DNA of 7,344 bases from IMG/VR virus record IMGVR_UViG_2526164662_000048, positions 1-7,344 of that record. One strand, written 5' to 3'. Below, one piece after another: positions 1 to 7,344 of this stretch (position 1 is the first letter of the stretch; every line of letters begins with the position of its first letter). The notes beneath the pieces are model-generated. The model saw only the letters and a program-made list of their open reading frames with translations, did not search any database and was not told the DNA's origin. This stretch comes from a virus (lineage: Duplodnaviria > Heunggongvirae > Uroviricota > Caudoviricetes). A program made the position numbers and the translations under genes.

Positions 1-2208
1 GGCCGCACGCTGTGCGTCTTCGATTTTCTTGCGCGCCCTTTCCGCTTCATCCGGAAGCACACCGAGCTTTTCAAGTATCCACGCCAGCGTATCCAGCAAC
101 ATTTTTGCAGGTGTCAGAACAAGTTGTAACGCACCGCCAAGAACGTTACCGAATATCTCGCCAGCACTGGTACATTTATCCAGCGTTTCCTTGCTGGACT
201 CCATCGGTGACAGCAGCGATTTAAACCAGTTAAACACCTGGCTGATCCCGCTTCCGATTGCGTCAAAAACAGGACCAAACCGTTCAAAGGTTTCGCGCAA
301 CGGGGTCAGCCTTTCCATAATCCCGCTGAACACCCCGGCAAAAAATGCCCTGATGGGATCCCAGTATTTCCAGATAAGAACGGCAGCTCCGGCAAGCGCA
401 GCCACAATAAGACCAACCGGACTGAACAACGCCCCGATAGCGCCTCCCAGTAAAGAAACGGAACCCGTCACCATTCCCCATAGTGCTGGCAGGACCCTGA
501 CAGCATTCATTGATCCGGTCAGGAGAGAAAAACCAAGACGCAGTTTTGCCAGCGGACCAGCAAGCACACCAATAGCCAGCGACAACGAGCCAACCGTTGC
601 AGTCATTGCCAGCAACGCACCGCCTGCTATCAGTAGCTGGCGCGTCAGTGCCGGATGGGCCTGCGCCAGCGCCGTCACCCTTGATACCACCCGCGTGAGC
701 CACTGCGTGACAGAACGCAGCGGACCGTCAATCAGATCTGCAATGCGGATGCGCAACCCTTCCCATGCACTGCCGAGTGATTTCAGATCGCCGTCAAGGT
801 TGTTGGCCATAACCTTTGCTGTGCGTTCAGCCTCACCGCGCGCGCCTTCAAGTTCTTTTCTCAGTTTGGGTAAGGAACCGTCACCCGCTGCATCAACGAG
901 CGCCATAAACGATGTGAAAGCCTCTTCTCCGGCAATGTCCTTAAAGAACGATACCCGGTCAACTTCCCCGTATTTGCGGGTGGCTTTATAAAGGTCGGCC
1001 AGCACATCCTCCATCGGGCGCATTTTGCCCCCGGCATCCGAGACAGACACGCCCAGCTCTTTCAGCGCCTCTGCTGCCGCCTTTGGCGGTGATGCCAGAC
1101 GAGCCAGGCTGGCACGCATTGCCGTCCCGGCATCACTTCCCCTGATACCCATATTCGCCAGCACGCCCGCCATCGCTGCGGCCTGCTCCAGCGATATTCC
1201 CAGCTTGCCCGCCACCGGACCTGCATATTTCATGGTTTCGCCCAGTGCGCGTAAATCAGTATTGGTCCGGGTAAATGCTGCTGTCAGCGTATCGCCCACC
1301 CGGTCCATTTGATCGGCTGTCAGGTTGAACTGTGTGAGGATATTTGAGCCAATATCTGCCGTCTCGCCGAGATCCATACCGCCAGCCGTTGCCATGCTCA
1401 GCACGCCGGGAAGCGCAGCCTGAATGGCCTGCGGAGTGAAGCCAGCCATTGCAAGAAATGCCTGTCCACTGGCGGCATCGCCTGCGGTGAACTGCGTTTC
1501 AGAGCCAAGTTTTAACGCCTGCTCACGCAGCGCCTTAAACTGCGGGCTGTTCTGGTCGATTCGCGTCAGTGCCTGAACGCGGGACATCTCTTTGCCGAAC
1601 CCGATCGCAGGCTGCAAAAAACGCCCGGCAGCATAGCCGCTCGCCGCTGCCGCACCAATTGCCAGCGCACCACCTGTTTTCAGTTTTCCCGCGGTTTCCT
1701 GCGCGCGCGAATACCGCTCACGCGCCCGCGTTACACGCGCAAGCGCCTGCCGTTCGCGTTCAAGCTGGTTGTTGTACTGTTCGGTGCGTCTGATGGCCTG
1801 CTGGATGGTGTTATCGCTGCCTGTCAGGGAAATGCCGTGGCGTTTCAGCTCTCCGCCAATCTCCCGCATTTTCTGAATTTCCCGTGTGCGCGATTCATTC
1901 AGGCGTTCAAGCCGGGTGCTTAACTGCTGCATCAGCTTTTGTTGTTTTTCGCTGAGCACTGTACCCGTGCGTTGTAACTGATTAAGGGCGTTAAGCTGGC
2001 GTCGTGCTTTCACGATACCCGCATCCGCTTTACTGACAGCGTCGCGGGCGCGCTCAAATGAACGCGCCTGACGCTCGAGATTTTTGATCGCCCCCTGCGT
2101 TCGCTGGATGGAGTCACCAAACTGCCCCATCAGGCGGCGGGCGTTTTCGGCAGGCCGGGTCAGCCTGTCAACGGCGCTGAAAGCGACCCGGATATCAAGA
2201 GTCTTCAT
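1..2208 (-). CDS. T: Tail tape measure protein (P2 gpT-like), 3' end truncated by the window edge
   Basis: I scanned the minus-strand frame codon by codon: it is open for all 736 codons from the ATG at 2208..2206 to position 1, with no stop. N-terminus translates MKTLDIRVAFSAVDRLTRPAENARRLMGQFGDSIQRTQGAIKNLERQ, followed by a coiled-coil-like, Ala/Gly-rich body typical of tape measures. It sits directly downstream of E/E' as in P2 FETUD. An in-frame ATG at 2217..2215 is an alternative start. The plus-strand ORFs listed here are antisense artefacts. Confidence 0.85.
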   Translation of the reverse strand, partial: MKTLDIRVAFSAVDRLTRPAENARRLMGQFGDSIQRTQGAIKNLERQARSFERARDAVSKADAGIVKARRQLNALNQLQRTGTVLSEKQQKLMQQLSTRLERLNESRTREIQKMREIGGELKRHGISLTGSDNTIQQAIRRTEQYNNQLERERQALARVTRARERYSRAQETAGKLKTGGALAIGAAAASGYAAGRFLQPAIGFGKEMSRVQALTRIDQNSPQFKALREQALKLGSETQFTAGDAASGQAFLAMAGFTPQAIQAALPGVLSMATAGGMDLGETADIGSNILTQFNLTADQMDRVGDTLTAAFTRTNTDLRALGETMKYAGPVAGKLGISLEQAAAMAGVLANMGIRGSDAGTAMRASLARLASPPKAAAEALKELGVSVSDAGGKMRPMEDVLADLYKATRKYGEVDRVSFFKDIAGEEAFTSFMALVDAAGDGSLPKLRKELEGARGEAERTAKVMANNLDGDLKSLGSAWEGLRIRIADLIDGPLRSVTQWLTRVVSRVTALAQAHPALTRQLLIAGGALLAMTATVGSLSLAIGVLAGPLAKLRLGFSLLTGSMNAVRVLPALWGMVTGSVSLLGGAIGALFSPVGLIVAALAGAAVLIWKYWDPIRAFFAGVFSGIMERLTPLRETFERFGPVFDAIGSGISQVFNWFKSLLSPMESSKETLDKCTSAGEIFGNVLGGALQLVLTPAKMLLDTLAWILEKLGVLPDEAERARKKIEDAQRAA

Positions 2209-2297
2209 TGTCTGCATTCCCGCTGCGAAGTGCCGCCCGCTCACGCCAGCTAACCACTTCGCCGGGCGTCATCATGAAGATTTCGGCGGGCGACCAG

Positions 2298-2725
2298 TTA
2301 AAAATGGCGGCAATATCCGCCACCAAAGTCTTCTATGTGCTCAAAGCACACAAGGGTGATTACGCTGCCGTCTCCTGCACGCTCTTCGCGCCAGAGTCTG
2401 GCTCGCTCATAAAATTTACAGCCACTGCGCACAACTGAATAAAATCGCGTGACGACATTTTTTTGATCGTCACTTCATCCAGTCGCGGTGATGTCACGCG
2501 TGACAGCAGCGTAAACATGGATTCCGCTTTCAGATTCAGCACATCAGACAGCGACAGACCACGCAGAGATCCAGCCTGCTCAATAGCCCCGGTGATCTCC
2601 ACATACGTGATTTTTTCGCCGCCTCGCTCAATTGGTTGGGTCAGTTTTACGCCACGCTCACTGGTTTCTTTCACAGTGTCAGCAACTACCGTGTTTTCGG
2701 TATCGATGTTTTTCGTCTCTTTCAT
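2298..2725 (-). CDS. E+E' fusion made by a programmed -1 frameshift (predicted 142 aa: about 89 aa of E plus a 53-aa E' extension)
   Basis: On the minus strand a run of 7 A (plus 2458..2464) lies in the context ATC AAA AAA ATG. The -1 frame is closed by a TGA at 2477..2475 just upstream, then open for 53 codons (NVVTRFYSVVRSGCKFYERARLWREERAGDGSVITLVCFEHIEDFGGGYCRHF) to a TAA at 2300..2298. The predicted total of 142 aa matches what I recall for P2 gpE+E'. Confidence 0.6.
2360..2725 (-). CDS. E: Tail assembly chaperone (P2 gpE-like), zero-frame product of 121 aa
   Basis: ORF in the track; good SD (minus strand AAGGAG about 7 nt upstream of the ATG at 2725..2723). Small acidic protein located between tail tube and tape measure, the conserved position of the tail chaperone. 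Confidence 0.85.
   Translation of the reverse strand: MKETKNIDTENTVVADTVKETSERGVKLTQPIERGGEKITYVEITGAIEQAGSLRGLSLSDVLNLKAESMFTLLSRVTSPRLDEVTIKKMSSRDFIQLCAVAVNFMSEPDSGAKSVQETAA
2457..2465 (-). other. Candidate slippery site (A7 run) for the E/E' -1 frameshift
   Basis: It is the only homopolymeric or slippery sequence in the 16-nt interval where the zero and -1 frames are both open. tRNA-Lys re-pairing on AAA is a classic -1 slip. Confidence 0.5.
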
Positions 2726-2779
2726 CAGGAAACTCCTTTCAGTCAGAGGCGACGCACTGCGCCGCCTGCATATTACTTA

Positions 2780-3292
2780 TCAGCCAAGCCCAAGCGCGGA
2801 ACGGATGCGATCGGGCACAATGTCCTTGCCGTCCTTCCGGTAAATGAAGTTCAGCAGGTCAATCTCCCACAGCGGGCGATCGTTAACGCTCAGCTTGTAG
2901 TAGGTGTTTTTAACAGCGTAAGTGTGTGATGTGGCTTCGCCCTGTTTGGCTTCCCCCATATCAATTTCCGTCACACGTCCACGCATCTCGACTTCATACA
3001 GGTCGCTTTCTGCATCGGTGTAGTATTCACCCGCAAAACGCAGCAGCGTGCCGTCAATCGTGCCGCCATACTTAAGGAACAGCTCACGAACTGCGCCCCC
3101 CATGACAAAGCTCGCATCAAGCGCGGAGTCGTCCAGACCGAGATCAATACTTACCGCACCCATCATGCCACCACCACGATAGCTGTCGGTTTTGCGCGTC
3201 AGCTTAGGCAGAGTGACGGACGTCACCTTACCCACTTCGTTTTCACCATCCACAAACAGCGTAAAAAAGCGAAGATGTTTTGGCACAGCCAT
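2780..3292 (-). CDS. FII: Major tail tube protein (P2 gpFII-like), 170 aa
   Basis: ORF in the track. The protein (MAVPKHLRFFTLFVDGENEVGKVTSVTLPKLTRKTDSYRGGGMMGAVSIDLGLDD...) closely matches my recollection of the P2 FII family (LPKLTRK, YRG.GM, DLGLDD, MRGR..EID.GE.KQGE). Its start overlaps the FI stop (TGATG). Confidence 0.93.
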   Translation of the reverse strand: MAVPKHLRFFTLFVDGENEVGKVTSVTLPKLTRKTDSYRGGGMMGAVSIDLGLDDSALDASFVMGGAVRELFLKYGGTIDGTLLRFAGEYYTDAESDLYEVEMRGRVTEIDMGEAKQGEATSHTYAVKNTYYKLSVNDRPLWEIDLLNFIYRKDGKDIVPDRIRSALGLG

Positions 3293-4476
3293 CAGGCACC
3301 TCCCAGCACCGCAAATGCGGGTTCAAAGTATTCATCAGTAAACGTCTGGTAAAGCTCCATATCTTCCAGCGGCGGAACAGGCGTATATTTGTAGCGAATA
3401 CGCACACGCCCCTGACGTAAATCCGTGGTGCTGTTATCCACCACGTCATACCAGCACTCCGCGCCAATCAGTTTCCCGGCAGTAACCAGTGAATCCAGCT
3501 TTGCCCTGATGGCACTGATTACATCCTTCACGTTCGCAGGCGTCAGTGGACTGTCGATGGTTTCAAACTGCGCTTCCGCAATTGAATCAGCCAACACCTG
3601 TGCGGTTCGGGTATACACCTCAAAGATGTAGGCGTTCGTTTCCGGTGTGCGGTTGCCCCAGAAGCGGAACCCGTTGCGACGAATAATGGTCGTGATTTCT
3701 TTGTTGTTGAGGCTGTTGGCATCACTGTCTTCGGCCTGCAACGACCAGAACACATGCCTGGACATCCCCAGCACATTTTTAACCGGAACGTTGGACAGTG
3801 ATTTGTGCCACCCCTGCTCATGGTCAATGTACGCACGAAGGCCGCACGCATAGGCAGGCGCGGGGAACGTTTCGTTTTTGCCACTTTTCGGGTTGTAGGC
3901 GATGAAGTCCGGCCATAAGAGCATCACCTCACGTTCGTTGAATTTCTGGCGGTAGGTAATCGCCTCAGCCATCGTGTTACAGCCGTGACATGAGGCATAC
4001 ACAAACGCGCGCAGTTTACCCGCAATCACGCACAGGGATTTTGTCACCGCCTCCGTGTCCAGCTCCGGCGCGGCCAGAATACGCGGACGGTATCCGATGC
4101 TTTCATCCTGCTCTGCAACAAGCAGCGCATACATCCCCGTATAGCTGCCGTCATCCTCAGAACCACCGATAACCAGTTGATCCTGCGTCTTTCCGTCTTC
4201 TTCTTTGTGTTCAGCCACGCGAACGACGATCACCTTTGTGCTCACCTGGTCTGCGATGGCCTTAAGCGCACGATAAAGCGTCCCCGTTGTTCCGCATTTT
4301 CCCAGCACGTCATTGACGCGGGTCAGCAGTGTGGGCTTGTTCAGCGGGAACAGCTCCGCGTCCGCATCATCCGCCGTTGCCACGATACCGATAACACTGG
4401 AATCAACATCATTAATCGCTGTTACCAGGTCGGTACTTTCCGTAACACGGGCACCATGAAAACGAGTTTCACTCAT
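3292..4476 (-). CDS. FI: Contractile tail sheath protein (P2 gpFI-like), 394 aa
   Basis: ORF in the track. Sequence tracks P2 FI along its length as I recall it (DADAE.FPLNKP, LRAF.Y, WPDF, IDHEQGWHK.LSNV, RRNGFRFWGNRT, YTRTAQV, YKYTPVPPLE). SD AAGGGG about 8 nt upstream of the ATG at 4476..4474. Confidence 0.95.
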   Translation of the reverse strand: MSETRFHGARVTESTDLVTAINDVDSSVIGIVATADDADAELFPLNKPTLLTRVNDVLGKCGTTGTLYRALKAIADQVSTKVIVVRVAEHKEEDGKTQDQLVIGGSEDDGSYTGMYALLVAEQDESIGYRPRILAAPELDTEAVTKSLCVIAGKLRAFVYASCHGCNTMAEAITYRQKFNEREVMLLWPDFIAYNPKSGKNETFPAPAYACGLRAYIDHEQGWHKSLSNVPVKNVLGMSRHVFWSLQAEDSDANSLNNKEITTIIRRNGFRFWGNRTPETNAYIFEVYTRTAQVLADSIAEAQFETIDSPLTPANVKDVISAIRAKLDSLVTAGKLIGAECWYDVVDNSTTDLRQGRVRIRYKYTPVPPLEDMELYQTFTDEYFEPAFAVLGGA

Positions 4477-4633
4477 AGCTTCAGCCCCTTGTATCCGTTA
4501 AATGATTCGGCAACAATCATCACCCACCACGCGCGTAATCTCACTCCTGCGCCGTTCTCCCGCCACGGCGACAACAAAAAGCAGTAACCCCCTCCGCACG
4601 CACATGCGACCATGCCGCACAGGGAGGGAACAG
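4477..4633. promoter_or_regulatory. Divergent intergenic region between FI (leftward) and D (rightward); must hold promoters for both
   Basis: 157-bp non-coding gap between two divergent start codons, each with its own SD (AGGGAGGG 5 nt before the D ATG at 4634). I could not pick out convincing -35/-10 elements or a P2-type TGT-N12-ACA late-promoter dyad by eye. Confidence 0.4.
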
Positions 4634-5743
4634 ATGACCGACACCACCATGCAATTGCTCAGTCAGGGCACAGACCCCGTGAAAATGCCGGATTTTGATA
4701 TTCTCGCGGAGGGTAAAACGCTGTCAGGCGTGGCAGAGCGCCTGATGAGCCTGTCACTGACCGACAACCGGGGATTTGAGGCGGACCAGCTCACCATCAC
4801 GCTGGATGATGCGGATGGTCAGTTGCAGCTACCCCCACGGGGCGCGCGCCTGACGGTTCTCATTGGCTGGAAGGGAGAACCGCTGACAGAAAAAGGCACT
4901 TACATTGTTGATGAAATCGCTCACGAAGGACCGCCGGACAGGCTGACTGTTTCAGCCAGAAGCGCAGATTTTCGGGATGAATTTAACGTTAAACGTGAGG
5001 TGTCCTGGCATGATGTGACCCTTGAGCGTGTGGTATCCGCCATCGCTCATCGGTATGGTCTGAAACCACAAATCAGCGAAATGCTGATGGATATCGAAAT
5101 CGACCACGCCGACCAGACCGAAGAAAGCGACATGTCCTTCCTTACGCGCATGGCGGAAATGCTGGGCGCAATCACCACGGTAAAAAGCGGTAATCTGTTA
5201 TTCATCATGCCAGGTGGTGGCGTGAACGCACAGGGCCAGCCGTTGCCCTCGTTCGTCATTACACGCAGCAGCGGCGATCGCCATCAGTTCCGCATTGCTG
5301 ACCGCGAGGCGTATACGGGTGTACGCGCCTACTGGCTTGATCTTAATTACGGGAAAAAGAAAAAAGTCAGCGTGAAACGCCGCAAACCGCCAAAACCCAA
5401 AAAGGAGAAAAGCAGTAGCCGTGAAGGTGATTATATGGAAGGCGCAGAAGGCAATGTGTTTGTGTTACGCAAGACTTATCAGAACGAGCAGGCAGCAAGA
5501 CGCGCAGCGGCGGCAAAGTGGCAGCAGCTACAACGCGGAGCCGCAGCGTTCTCCATCACACTGGCACGTGGACGCGCAGAACTCTACCCCGAAATGCATG
5601 GCACGGTAACAGGATTTAAAAGCGAAATTGATAATCAGGACTGGATTATTGCAAAAGCCGAGCACACCATTGATAACAGTGGCTTTACCACGCAGCTTGA
5701 GCTTGAAGCCAAAATCCCGGAATGGATAGCAGAAACAGAGTAA
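4634..5743 (+). CDS. D: Tail protein D (P2 gpD, late control D family), 369 aa
   Basis: The track ORF 4502..5743 is trimmed to the ATG at 4634, which has a strong SD. The protein matches the gpD family as I recall it (SLTDNRGFEADQL, GWKG, RSADFR, SWHD, FLTR.AE, ITRS.GDRH.F.IADR.AYTG, lysine-rich KKKKVSVKRRKPPKPKKEK stretch, NSGFTT.LELE). Confidence 0.9.
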   Translation: MTDTTMQLLSQGTDPVKMPDFDILAEGKTLSGVAERLMSLSLTDNRGFEADQLTITLDDADGQLQLPPRGARLTVLIGWKGEPLTEKGTYIVDEIAHEGPPDRLTVSARSADFRDEFNVKREVSWHDVTLERVVSAIAHRYGLKPQISEMLMDIEIDHADQTEESDMSFLTRMAEMLGAITTVKSGNLLFIMPGGGVNAQGQPLPSFVITRSSGDRHQFRIADREAYTGVRAYWLDLNYGKKKKVSVKRRKPPKPKKEKSSSREGDYMEGAEGNVFVLRKTYQNEQAARRAAAAKWQQLQRGAAAFSITLARGRAELYPEMHGTVTGFKSEIDNQDWIIAKAEHTIDNSGFTTQLELEAKIPEWIAETE

Positions 5744-5937
5744 ACAACTTAGATGCATTAGCCCTGACATTTGCTAACGCGCTTACAGCAAGAATCATAA
5801 CCAATCTGACAGCCTACCCGGTGTCAAAATCAGAAGAGCCTTACATTAGAATATGTTAATTTGTAGCAAACAAATTTACACACAAATGATTACTGCTGAA
5901 ATAGCCCCCATAAATACCATGTCAAAGGATCCATGTT

Positions 5938-6603
5938 ATGAATATGCAAATTTTTATCGCACCAGCAGCCACAGTTGCTGCAGTCTGCCTTGCTGCATAT
6001 TTTGCTTTACGAAATGAACGTAAAAAGAAAGCACTTGAGATTAGAACAACTCAACTAGATCGAATATCAGAGCTAGTAAACCGAGCATCTACCAATTTGA
6101 TGCAATATACAGGTACTCTTGCCTCTATACTGGAAGCGCACGCCAAAGATAATTATCTACCGAACAAAAAATTTGACATTAATGTAATTAGCAAATGGAA
6201 AGATTGCCTCGATGAGAGTGAGGTCTGGGCGATTGATAGACAGCAACTAAGAACATGTCAGCACAGTCTGGAGTTTCATCGTGAAAAAGAATGGGCTGAA
6301 TGGAAAAAAATAATTCCACCATTACTTGATAAAATTGACCAATTTTTTCTCATATCTAAGCCAGGGCAACCTGTTACGTTTATAAATGGCCAAAACAAAA
6401 CAGCTGATGAACTACTTGTTTTCTCAAGATATTTGAGAAAACAAACAGCAGAAATTGAATCAGTACGTCAGCTGTTACTTTCTCAAATGAGAGAGGAATT
6501 CATCGAGTTAACTAGCTTTGAACCTGTCACAATGTTTAGCTTATTTAAATCAATAAAGAAAAATGTCATGCAATTTTTCTGTATCAGTGCTCTTAAAAAT
6601 TGA
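5938..6603 (+). CDS. Hypothetical membrane-anchored cargo (moron) protein, 221 aa, function unknown
   Basis: ORF in the track with SD AAAGGA 8 nt upstream. N-terminal hydrophobic helix (IFIAPAATVAAVCLAAYFAL) followed by RNERKKK, then a charged, probably helical soluble region. Hand counts of sample lines give roughly 25 to 45 percent GC here versus roughly 57 percent in the tail genes. Followed by a hairpin terminator. I recognise no family. Confidence 0.7.
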   Translation: MNMQIFIAPAATVAAVCLAAYFALRNERKKKALEIRTTQLDRISELVNRASTNLMQYTGTLASILEAHAKDNYLPNKKFDINVISKWKDCLDESEVWAIDRQQLRTCQHSLEFHREKEWAEWKKIIPPLLDKIDQFFLISKPGQPVTFINGQNKTADELLVFSRYLRKQTAEIESVRQLLLSQMREEFIELTSFEPVTMFSLFKSIKKNVMQFFCISALKN

Positions 6604-6618
6604 CGCTCTGTTGCAAGC

Positions 6619-6647
6619 AACCCCAGTGTTAAACTGGGGTTATTCTT
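6619..6647 (+). terminator. Putative rho-independent terminator of the cargo gene
   Basis: Perfect 9-bp stem AACCCCAGT (6619..6627) / ACTGGGGTT (6633..6641) with a 5-nt loop GTTAA, followed by the T-rich ATTCTT, 15 nt after the cargo stop codon. Confidence 0.5.
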
Positions 6648-6752
6648 GCTAAGAGACCTTTCTACGGCATCAGTAAACAAAACGAACTATCAGTTGGAGT
6701 CTGAGCAAGTTCAGCCTAAACTAGCGACAGCACTACGTTAAGGGAGGTCGCT

Positions 6753-7013
6753 ATGTTCCGTTGTCCGCTTTGTGGCGCATCTGCCCGTATCCGCACCAGT
6801 CGTCCGGAAAATGATTCAAACACCGTGCGGCAAAAGTATTACCAGTGTAACAACCTGGAATGCGGCGTATGCTTCTCAACACTGGAAGCTTTCCATAAAT
6901 TCACATCGAAACACGCCTCCGGCATCCACTCTTCAGAAGATATCCCGTGGCATGAGCTGCCAGCTTCACACAGGGGAAACAATCAGATGAGCTTGCCTTT
7001 ACCTCAGAATTAA
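6753..7013 (+). CDS. ogr: Ogr/Delta-family zinc-finger late transcription activator, 86 aa
   Basis: MFRCPLCGASARIRTSR...QKYYQCNNLECGVCFSTLEAF matches the Ogr signature (MFHCPLC...ARTSR...RYHQC.N..C...F, with Cys-X2-Cys ... Cys-X4-Cys). Strong SD AAGGGAGG 6 nt upstream. Position just downstream of D matches P2. Confidence 0.88.
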   Translation: MFRCPLCGASARIRTSRPENDSNTVRQKYYQCNNLECGVCFSTLEAFHKFTSKHASGIHSSEDIPWHELPASHRGNNQMSLPLPQN

Positions 7014-7022
7014 CAGGCAGAA

Positions 7023-7051
7023 TTGCCGGAGTAACAAAAAAGCGATAGATT
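7023..7051 (+). promoter_or_regulatory. Candidate sigma70 promoter for the hok/mok-like transcript (TTGCCG-17 bp-TAGATT)
   Basis: -35-like TTGCCG at 7023..7028 and -10-like TAGATT at 7046..7051 with a 17-bp spacer, about 25 bp upstream of the Mok-like ATG. Hexamer matches are partial (4/6 each), so this is tentative. Confidence 0.25.
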
Positions 7052-7073
7052 ACGCGCGGGTGCCTTTCGGCTG

Positions 7074-7286
7074 ATGGTCGGAGGGAATACCCGAAGGCCA
7101 GATGTGGAAAGGCCCCGGAAAACATCTCTGTTTAACCGAGGCCCTAACCGCATTACCTTGACAAGTGAAAGGTTAGCGCCTCTCCGGAAAAGGAGCAAGT
7201 GCTATGTCGCAAAAATCGCTTACGGCCATCACGTTCTGCGTGACGGCAATCCTCATCATCTGGATGTTGCACGGTTCGCTGTGTGA
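7074..7286 (+). CDS. Mok-like overlapping reading frame (70 codons) upstream of and overlapping the hok-like ORF
   Basis: 70-aa ORF in the track, in a different frame from the toxin ORF, starting 130 nt upstream of it and ending inside it. This is the mok/hok overlap architecture. The product is basic and low-complexity, as expected for a frame used for translational coupling rather than for its protein. Confidence 0.4.
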   Translation: MVGGNTRRPDVERPRKTSLFNRGPNRITLTSERLAPLRKRSKCYVAKIAYGHHVLRDGNPHHLDVARFAV

Positions 7287-7344
7287 AATACGGATGAGCT
7301 TCTGGGGAGCGGAGTTTGCGGCGTTCTTACAGTGTAAGCAGTAA
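7204..7344 (+). CDS. hok: Hok/Gef-family type I toxin, 46 aa
   Basis: Translates MSQKSLTAITFCVTAILIIWMLHGSLCEIRMSFWGAEFAAFLQCKQ: a single TM helix, then the SLCEIR motif and an E(F/V)AAF motif shared with Hok of plasmid R1 (..RKSLCEIRYRDGHREVAAF..). SD AGGAG 8 nt upstream. The stop codon is the last three bases of the window. The ORF is below the 60-aa cut-off of the supplied track. Confidence 0.6.
   Translation: MSQKSLTAITFCVTAILIIWMLHGSLCEIRMSFWGAEFAAFLQCKQ

Follow-up and report, generated by a model that had tools for sequence, protein, structure and literature searches.

An inherited, inverted layout of the FI–U tail genes in P88-like prophages, with a predicted two-way late promoter between FI and D

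Introduction

In phage P2 the tail genes FI, FII, E/E', T, U and D form a single collinear operon transcribed from the PF promoter, with the late activator gene ogr downstream, and the tail gene order of pyocin R2 is collinear too. A 7,344-nucleotide stretch of viral DNA (positions 1 to 7,344 of the IMG/VR record IMGVR_UViG_2526164662_000048; hereafter the window) has the same kinds of genes, with FI, FII, E and T reading leftward and D and ogr reading rightward. The question that this locus raises is whether such an apparently broken operon reflects damage or is the way in which a group of phages is ordinarily built. An earlier reading made without database searches (the sequence-only reading) considered an intact but rearranged phage, a decaying prophage and a domesticated tail cluster, with a lineage of non-canonical organization as the alternative. 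We show here that the inverted layout is an inherited, normal trait of a large and well-sampled group of functional P2-like phages. The explanation that we favor as a whole, at a probability of roughly 0.8, is that the window belongs to a P88-like prophage in which FI–U would have been inverted in place once, long ago, and in which FI and D would share a late promoter that works in both directions and depends on Ogr.

The window is the right arm of a P88-like prophage

Open reading frames (ORFs) were taken from a six-frame list and domains from Pfam, with further profile matching against PHROGs, NCBIfam and PADLOC. ORFs and Pfam together identify eight genes, with T, an E' remnant, E, FII and FI reading leftward and D, ogr and hok reading rightward, and this confirms the gene identities and strands of the sequence-only reading, including FI and D as divergent neighbors. 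The features that define the layout are as follows.

1..2208, minus strand: T, tape measure, N-terminal 736 codons, running off the left edge (Pfam PhageMin_Tail, E = 1.3e-57)
2195..2326, minus strand: E' remnant with a GpE domain (Pfam Phage_P2_GpE, E = 6e-13)
2360..2725, minus strand: E, tail assembly chaperone (from its ORF, its position and 88% identity to P88 E)
2780..3292, minus strand: FII, tail tube (Pfam Phage_tube, E = 8.7e-47, full length)
3292..4476, minus strand: FI, tail sheath (Pfam Phage_sheath_1, Gp18_domIII_N and Phage_sheath_1C; PHROG 23, tail sheath, E = 8.5e-128)
4477..4633: spacer between the divergent FI and D genes, 157 bp
4634..5743, plus strand: D, baseplate hub or spike, gpD/VgrG-like (Pfam Phage_GPD, E = 2e-16; PHROG 52, E = 1e-166)
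6753..7013, plus strand: ogr, late-gene activator with a C4 zinc finger (Pfam Ogr_Delta, E = 5e-14; PHROG 603, transcriptional regulator)

This is the gene set of a P2-like tail module (Peduoviridae), with homologues of FI, FII, E/E', T, D and Ogr recognized by Pfam or PHROG, E weakly so (its Pfam Phage_TAC_7 match, E = 0.003, lies under the cut-off). T is 98% identical to the T proteins of Escherichia phage P88 and of a near-identical prophage, L002, and D and FI are 51% and 47% identical, respectively, to the proteins of Peduovirus pro147. The arrangement, however, is not the collinear one of P2: FI through T are on the minus strand and D and ogr on the plus strand, as had been noted, and D is not operon-terminal. 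U is outside the window, and in relatives it lies directly downstream of T on the same (minus) strand, which is where the sequence-only reading had placed it.

D starts with the ATG at 4634 and has its own Shine-Dalgarno sequence, GGGAGGG, at 4622-4628, whereas in P2 the D start overlaps the U stop. A start at 4502 (ORF 4502..5743) was rejected as over-extended, the homologue alignments and the RefSeq annotation of the 98%-identical L002 locus both beginning at the equivalent of 4634. The bounds of the FI/D spacer, within which one breakpoint of the inversion had been proposed to lie, are thereby confirmed, and it also holds that D is cut off from co-transcription with FI–U and needs a promoter of its own.

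The window is 96.6% identical in nucleotide sequence to P88 (Xuanwuvirus, NC_026014) across 87% of its length. For the Xuanwuvirus records as a group, P88 included, identity is 94–97% in alignments that also span 87%; the uncovered remainder is an insert between D and ogr. At 98% identity the match extends over the full length in prophages of complete E. coli chromosomes; at least 80% of the window is contained in 1105 of 5426 complete E. coli genomes. The window thus comes from an E. coli prophage of the P88-like type (Xuanwuvirus, Peduoviridae), of which it is the right arm. Both its high nucleotide identity to P88 and its identical gene order are Xuanwuvirus traits, bearing in mind that the genus criterion applies to whole genomes and the window is only 7.3 kb. 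The same genes in the same order and on the same strands (U, T, E', E, FII and FI leftward, then D, ogr and hok rightward) are present in P88, Citrobacter phage phiSM, PhiR44_2, P884B11, 500465-2 and Chuche, and the spacer of 157 bp is the same in P88 and its relatives. Unlike P88, the window carries a cargo insert of 968 bp in the D–ogr interval; the 3' part of its E gene belongs to another allele, and one inserted nucleotide shifts its E' out of frame. Its left edge is base 1 of the draft contig AIGU01000041.1 (GCA_000250095.2), the end of which falls inside T; this contig break may stem from a second similar prophage or from repeats in the source genome.

The inverted layout is shared by a large group of functional phages

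The wider context of the window can be read from P88 and L002, which have V, W, J, I, H and G reading rightward, then an invertible fiber segment and a DNA invertase gene, then U, T, E', E, FII and FI reading leftward, and finally D, ogr and hok reading rightward beside the attachment end. The sequence-only reading had suggested that U and then Z/fun, G and H might follow T in inverted order; in near-identical complete genomes U is indeed inverted, but beyond it come the invertase and the invertible fiber segment, and G and H are forward.

Several lines of evidence show that this order is neither recent nor a sign of damage. First, P88 is mitomycin-C inducible and plaque-forming (PMC5285337), and phiSM, a P88 relative with the same order, is temperate, spontaneously released and plaque-forming, and lysogenizes K-12 (PMC6456863). 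Since intact, inducible phages share the same order, the layout is a lineage trait and not damage. Second, the layout is found in three ICTV-recognized genera, Xuanwuvirus, Reginaelenavirus and Senquatrovirus. The block is likewise inverted in Salmonella phage SEN5 (Senquatrovirus) and Klebsiella phage Kp4871-3 (Reginaelenavirus), which differ from the window's lineage in their hosts, in D proteins only 63–70% identical, and in having no invertase beside U or elsewhere. Canonical order is retained in Peduovirus pro147, Kapieceevirus ST512-KPC3phi13.2 and Wadgaonvirus 500465-1. Third, one Genome Taxonomy Database (GTDB) genome per bacterial species was scanned with an alignment of D proteins, which gave 80 loci that were taken with 10-kb flanks. 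All 59 loci in which D is 61–98% identical to that of the window, spanning about 26 genera of Enterobacterales, have H rightward, U, T, E, FII and FI leftward, and D and ogr rightward, and all 21 loci in which D is 47–53% identical have the canonical FI, FII, E, T, U and D in one direction. Four distant outgroup phages (phiCTX, Mannheimia phiMhaA1, Ralstonia RsoM1USA and Vibrio MAR) are canonical as well.

These data bear directly on whether the order arose by a recent, strain-specific rearrangement or by a misassembly at 4477..4633, the latter having been raised by the sequence-only reading itself. Such an origin would fit a draft contig that ends inside T and an order that departs from those of P2, 186 and the pyocin clusters. 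However, of the 1374 complete E. coli genomes with a match of any kind to a 657-nt query across the FI/D junction, 1358 have it unbroken, at 95–99% identity, and the junction is present also in 11 phage records and in the 59 loci from about 26 genera. A recent rearrangement or misassembly is effectively refuted. The sequence-only reading had also granted that the order would count as a lineage feature if many intact, inducible P2-like phages were found to share it, and P88, phiSM, the three genera and the 59 loci show this to be so. The alternative of a lineage with non-canonical organization is therefore the part of that reading that stands, and a rearranged, decaying or domesticated element is not what the order indicates.

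The result removes a false alarm, in that the operon, broken as it looks, has the layout normal to a very common prophage family; about a quarter of complete E. coli genomes have it, among them O157:H7, O55:H7, O111 and O145 strains. Annotation pipelines and callers of prophage intactness built around the collinear P2 order should not count this layout as degraded. The relative orientation of FI and D is also a simple marker of a deep sub-clade of the Peduoviridae that contains Xuanwuvirus, Reginaelenavirus, Senquatrovirus and many unnamed prophages. No paper describing the FI–U inversion or its promoter was found in the searchable literature, and gene orientation goes unmentioned in the SEN4/SEN5 paper and in the P88 paper (PMC5285337). 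The layout has nonetheless been public for years in the genomes of the three genera, and the finding is real but ordinary.

Some members of the group are interrupted or oddly labeled. The region homologous to the window is interrupted in E. coli NZ_CM151386.1 by ISEcp1 with blaCTX-M-15, in other complete genomes by IS3-family or IS1A elements, and in the phage records 520873 and 503458 by IS100. A 226-kb contig labeled Vagococcus sp. WN89Y (L009, NZ_JBQPOM010000071.1) carries a P88-like prophage with a D protein 98% identical to that of the window; its Firmicute label most likely reflects contamination or a mislabeled assembly.

Origin of the inversion

The event that we favor is an inversion of FI-FII-E/E'-T-U in place. 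It would have happened once, in the ancestor from which a large enterobacterial sub-clade of P2-like phages descends, with one breakpoint a little upstream of the PF late promoter and the other where U meets D, and would then have been inherited as a fixed layout. In quick neighbor-joining trees of D and of FI, calculated without bootstrap support (a weakness in the argument), the 62 inverted tips form one clade with zero canonical members within it, and this monophyly in both trees points to a single ancient inversion in place. It also counts against this account that an inversion in place is formally inseparable from excision and re-insertion of the block.

The mosaic nature of P2-like genomes suggests another route, in which recombination put in a foreign FI–U cassette in reverse, between G and D. 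The G/FI boundary is known to vary, being occupied by Z/fun in P2 and by the invertase or other genes elsewhere. Nonetheless, one and the same inverted clade comes out as monophyletic in the FI tree and in the D tree, the gene content and both sets of neighbors (H/G and D/ogr) are unchanged, and an inversion with two breakpoints is simpler. We consider cassette replacement improbable.

A different possibility is that FI–U is a programmed, reversible segment, flipped like the tail-fiber segment by the neighboring Hin/Gin/Cin-type invertase. In both L002 and P88 the invertase adjoins U, and the invertible fiber segment, with its 734-nt inverted repeats, lies just beyond; the likeness is to the switched fiber segments of Mu (G), P1 (C) and e14 (P), with their Gin, Cin and Pin invertases, one such segment being directly beside the inverted block in relatives of the window. 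In other respects FI–U lacks the traits of an invertase-controlled segment. First, it has no flanking crossover repeats; a search of 14 kb of L002 for inverted repeats gave the known fiber-segment repeats and short pairs only. Second, it is present in one orientation, with none of the 64 clade loci showing the opposite one, and the junction is contiguous across E. coli as described above. Third, an invertase was detected in only 10 of the 64 clade loci, although all 64 are inverted, and FI–U is inverted also in lineages that have no invertase. Finally, Wadgaonvirus 500465-1 carries an invertase 82% identical to that of the window's lineage and yet is canonical. A reversible switch is accordingly very improbable, and the invertase was likewise rejected as the cause of the inversion, most clade members being without the gene and one canonical phage having the 82%-identical copy. 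A 16-nt inverted pair touching the 5' end of FI was considered as a crossover site and set aside, its size being that expected by chance in a 14-kb region. The sequence-only reading had suggested looking for inverted repeats or recombinase genes at the breakpoints; of these, no inverted repeats were found, and a recombinase is represented by the invertase that adjoins U in L002 and P88.

The fiber segment itself, left of U at 14000-18900 in L002, is made up of several cassettes and is invertible; its inverted repeats reach 734 nt (96% identity), a Hin/Gin-type invertase gene adjoins U, and two of the fiber and assembly genes in the segment are annotated as frameshifted.

A predicted two-way late promoter between FI and D

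If FI–U was inverted in place with a breakpoint just upstream of PF, the inversion would have placed the PF activator site beside D. P2 late promoters have the consensus TGT-N12-ACA and depend on Ogr (PMC3931495), which has been linked genetically to RNA polymerase's alpha subunit (PMC11434276). The predicted elements in the FI/D spacer of the window are these.

4556..4573, no strand assigned: Ogr-type activator dyad TCT-N12-ACA (predicted site; centered between 4564 and 4565; consensus TGT-N12-ACA)
4516..4521, minus strand: predicted leftward FI -10 element, GATGAT on the minus strand, with a predicted start at ~4509
4605..4613, plus strand: predicted rightward D extended -10 element, TG-c-GACCAT (TG at 4605-4606, GACCAT at 4608-4613), with a predicted start at ~4620

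There are several features of this spacer that are conserved. First, its length is 122–198 bp at all 64 clade loci, and 58 of the 64 have exactly one T[G/C]T-N12-ACA dyad, 66–80 nt from the FI start. Most clade dyads are the canonical TGT-N12-ACA of P2 late promoters, as in SEN5 and Kp4871-3, and the sub-lineage of the window has TCT-N12-ACA; the window thus shows the traits of the inverted clade in its gene order, in its 157-bp spacer (the clade criterion being 120–200 bp) and in its single central dyad at 4556-4573. Second, when 61 unique clade spacers are anchored on the dyad and aligned free of gaps, the dyad provides the highest-information columns, and outside it the most conserved columns are two -10-like hexamers at mirror positions, 43.5–48.5 nt from the dyad center. 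Third, the FI-side hexamer has A2/T6 in 93% of the 61 sequences (26% at the next-best offset) and is found at the same place in 75% of 16 canonical PF regions, the dyad and -10 element of PF being equally far upstream of FI in P2. Fourth, the D-side hexamer has A2/T6 in 89% (21% at the next-best offset), with G at -14 in 89% and the full TG in 61%, and in the canonical PF regions its position is at the background level (12.5% of 16). Finally, the D-side element is at a fixed distance from the dyad and a variable one from the D start codon, which is the behavior expected of a promoter element positioned by an activator.

An Ogr-dependent P2 late promoter is characterized by a TGT-N12-ACA dyad with its center about 55 nt upstream of the start, a -10 hexamer and a poor -35 element. 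The closest parallel is the pP/pO pair of P2, in which, according to the P2 reference record, one activator site (3057-3087) serves two promoters with mapped starts at 3016 and 3127, 55.5 nt on each side of the dyad center, and in which the pO -10 element is 43.5–48.5 nt from that center, as in the FI/D spacer. In the spacer each predicted start is ~55 nt from the dyad center, and the likeness extends to a single dyad midway between two outward promoters in a spacer of about 150 bp. The same half-sites, GTTCT...ACAACAAAAGC, recur in the P/O spacer of L002, which belongs to the lineage of the window. The two pairs differ in that the FI/D pair lies between the sheath and D genes and the P2 pair between those for terminase and scaffold, and in that the P2 pair is mapped and the FI/D pair predicted.

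These similarities suggest that the FI/D motifs may be functional promoters bound by Ogr. One dyad-symmetric Ogr site midway in the spacer (4556-4573) would serve both, the leftward -10 element (4516-4521) driving FI-FII-E-T-U and the rightward extended -10 element (4605-4613) driving D, and possibly also ogr in relatives that lack the cargo insert. Most likely, then, D gets its own promoter from this shared two-way late promoter.

There are, however, several observations that pull the other way. The exact TGT-N12-ACA consensus has no match in the window, and the relaxed T[G/C]T-N12-ACA is not enriched there (4 found against 6.2 expected); being at chance level, the relaxed dyad derives its weight only from its conserved position across relatives. 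The dyad of the window is one mismatch off the consensus (5/6 positions), and the D-side GACCAT fits just 3/6 consensus positions. A generic scan for sigma-70 promoters and terminators gave nothing in the FI/D spacer, and its sites were no more numerous than expected by chance. Such a miss is to be expected where an activator-dependent promoter has no -35 element, but it offers no positive support either. The case for the promoter is a comparative one.

The weakness of the D-side -10 element in the window, and its being missed by the sigma-70 scan, leave room for D to be expressed without a local Ogr-dependent promoter, either by antisense read-through from the rightward unit of V–G and the invertase or from a constitutive promoter. 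Read-through, though, would have to run for ~6 kb against the direction of a strongly transcribed late operon, and the occurrence of the D-side -10 element and its TG at a fixed distance from the dyad in 89% of the 61 sequences, together with its absence from canonical PF regions, argues against either source. We regard expression of D without such a local promoter as unlikely.

What is modestly new here is only the prediction that PF was converted to a bidirectional, Ogr-dependent promoter resembling pP/pO. We think it rather probable that an inversion that splits this operon would be tolerated by virtue of the dyad symmetry of Ogr sites, with PF becoming a second pP/pO-like promoter by gaining a mirror-image extended -10 element and so yielding a short, Ogr-activated D(-ogr) unit. 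If this is true, ogr would lie ~1.2 kb from a late promoter instead of ~6.4 kb in most clade members, giving tighter positive feedback, and the locus would be a clean natural case of promoter exaptation rescuing an operon-breaking rearrangement. Confirmation would mean that, by virtue of a symmetric activator site, a phage can survive when an inversion severs an essential gene from its operon, and would provide a compact, 157-bp, activator-dependent bidirectional promoter for study.

Condition of this copy

Quite apart from the layout of its lineage, this particular copy might be a decaying prophage or a domesticated tail cluster (tailocin), and the place to consider this is E/E'. A further feature is relevant here.

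2411..2417, minus strand: candidate -1 frameshift heptamer A AAT TTT near the 3' end of E (read from the sequence)

Relatives with the other allele also have T TTT TTG at this site, as P2 does, and in the P2 record a -1 frameshift site is annotated at the equivalent TTTTTTG; by analogy, the heptamer at 2411-2417 may be the slippery site. In comparison with L002, P88 and CFSAN018748, the last of which has the same E allele, E' of the window has a 1-nt insertion near 2323; as a result the GpE domain is no longer in the -1 frame entered at the heptamer, and an E+E' product would lack that domain. All 12 of the E. coli matches listed for 2190-2730 are one base shorter, and the E/E' frames of relatives are intact. 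The frameshift thus either marks a tail-defective copy or is a single-base draft error in a short G/T run.

A decaying or domesticated element would account for an out-of-frame E', E+E' being called essential in the P2 record, and with the contig ending in T the head and replication genes are out of view. On the other hand, the remaining genes of the window are full-length and 88–99% identical to those of plaque-forming P88, the insertion is in a short G/T run of a draft assembly and could be a sequencing error, and the 98%-identical L002 carries the integrase-distal head, lysis, baseplate and fiber genes. Nor would decay or domestication explain the gene order, which intact phages share; the E' defect has no bearing on it. 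That this copy is decayed or domesticated is rather unlikely.

R-type pyocins and P2-derived tailocins have the sheath, tube, chaperone, tape measure, U and D genes in common with the window. The hallmark of a tailocin, a locus devoid of head, packaging, replication and integration genes, has to be judged through relatives. These, unlike tailocins, are complete, plaque-forming phages that have genes for the head, lysis, replication and integrase; L002 has those for portal, terminase, capsid and lysis, and P88 has integrase and replication genes as well. We know of no tailocin with an inverted FI–U order. The Xenorhabdus xnp1 tailocin, in which a variable region lies between the sheath gene and the main fiber gene, was considered as a precedent and rejected, its order being read as canonical.

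The D–ogr interval, ogr and hok

The remaining features of the window lie to the right of D.

5754..6721, plus strand: low-GC cargo insert, 968 bp (GC ~0.36, within a range of 0.35-0.41; blastn against P88 shows 1 nt in its place)
5938..6603, plus strand: orphan cargo ORF of 221 aa with a hydrophobic N-terminus (from the ORF list)
6619-6641, no strand assigned: hairpin after the cargo ORF, with a poor T tract (from the terminator and promoter scan)
7204..7344, plus strand: hok/gef-family toxin gene, touching the right edge (Pfam HOK_GEF, E = 4e-7; RefSeq Hok/Gef in L002)

The cargo insert extends from the D stop to 31 nt upstream of ogr. Its 221-aa ORF has no match in Pfam, PHROGs or NCBIfam and one sub-threshold match in PADLOC (E = 0.023), and a large protein search finds homologues in E. 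coli and Kluyvera only, every one of them hypothetical. The gap between D and ogr is 36–88 nt at 60 of the 64 clade loci, and two loci, L009 and L052, have different inserts of 1.4–1.5 kb at the same site, which looks like an occasional cargo site. If the hairpin at 6619-6641 terminates transcription, ogr would not be co-transcribed with D in this copy and would require a promoter in the 110 nt upstream (6642-6752); a consensus promoter scan found none in that interval.

At the right edge, where hok lies at the end of the prophage, neither a Sok nor a hok RNA element could be called, a scan of the window against Rfam having given no family at the gathering score. The 300 nt around hok are ~83% identical to the hok loci of many Stx-converting phages.

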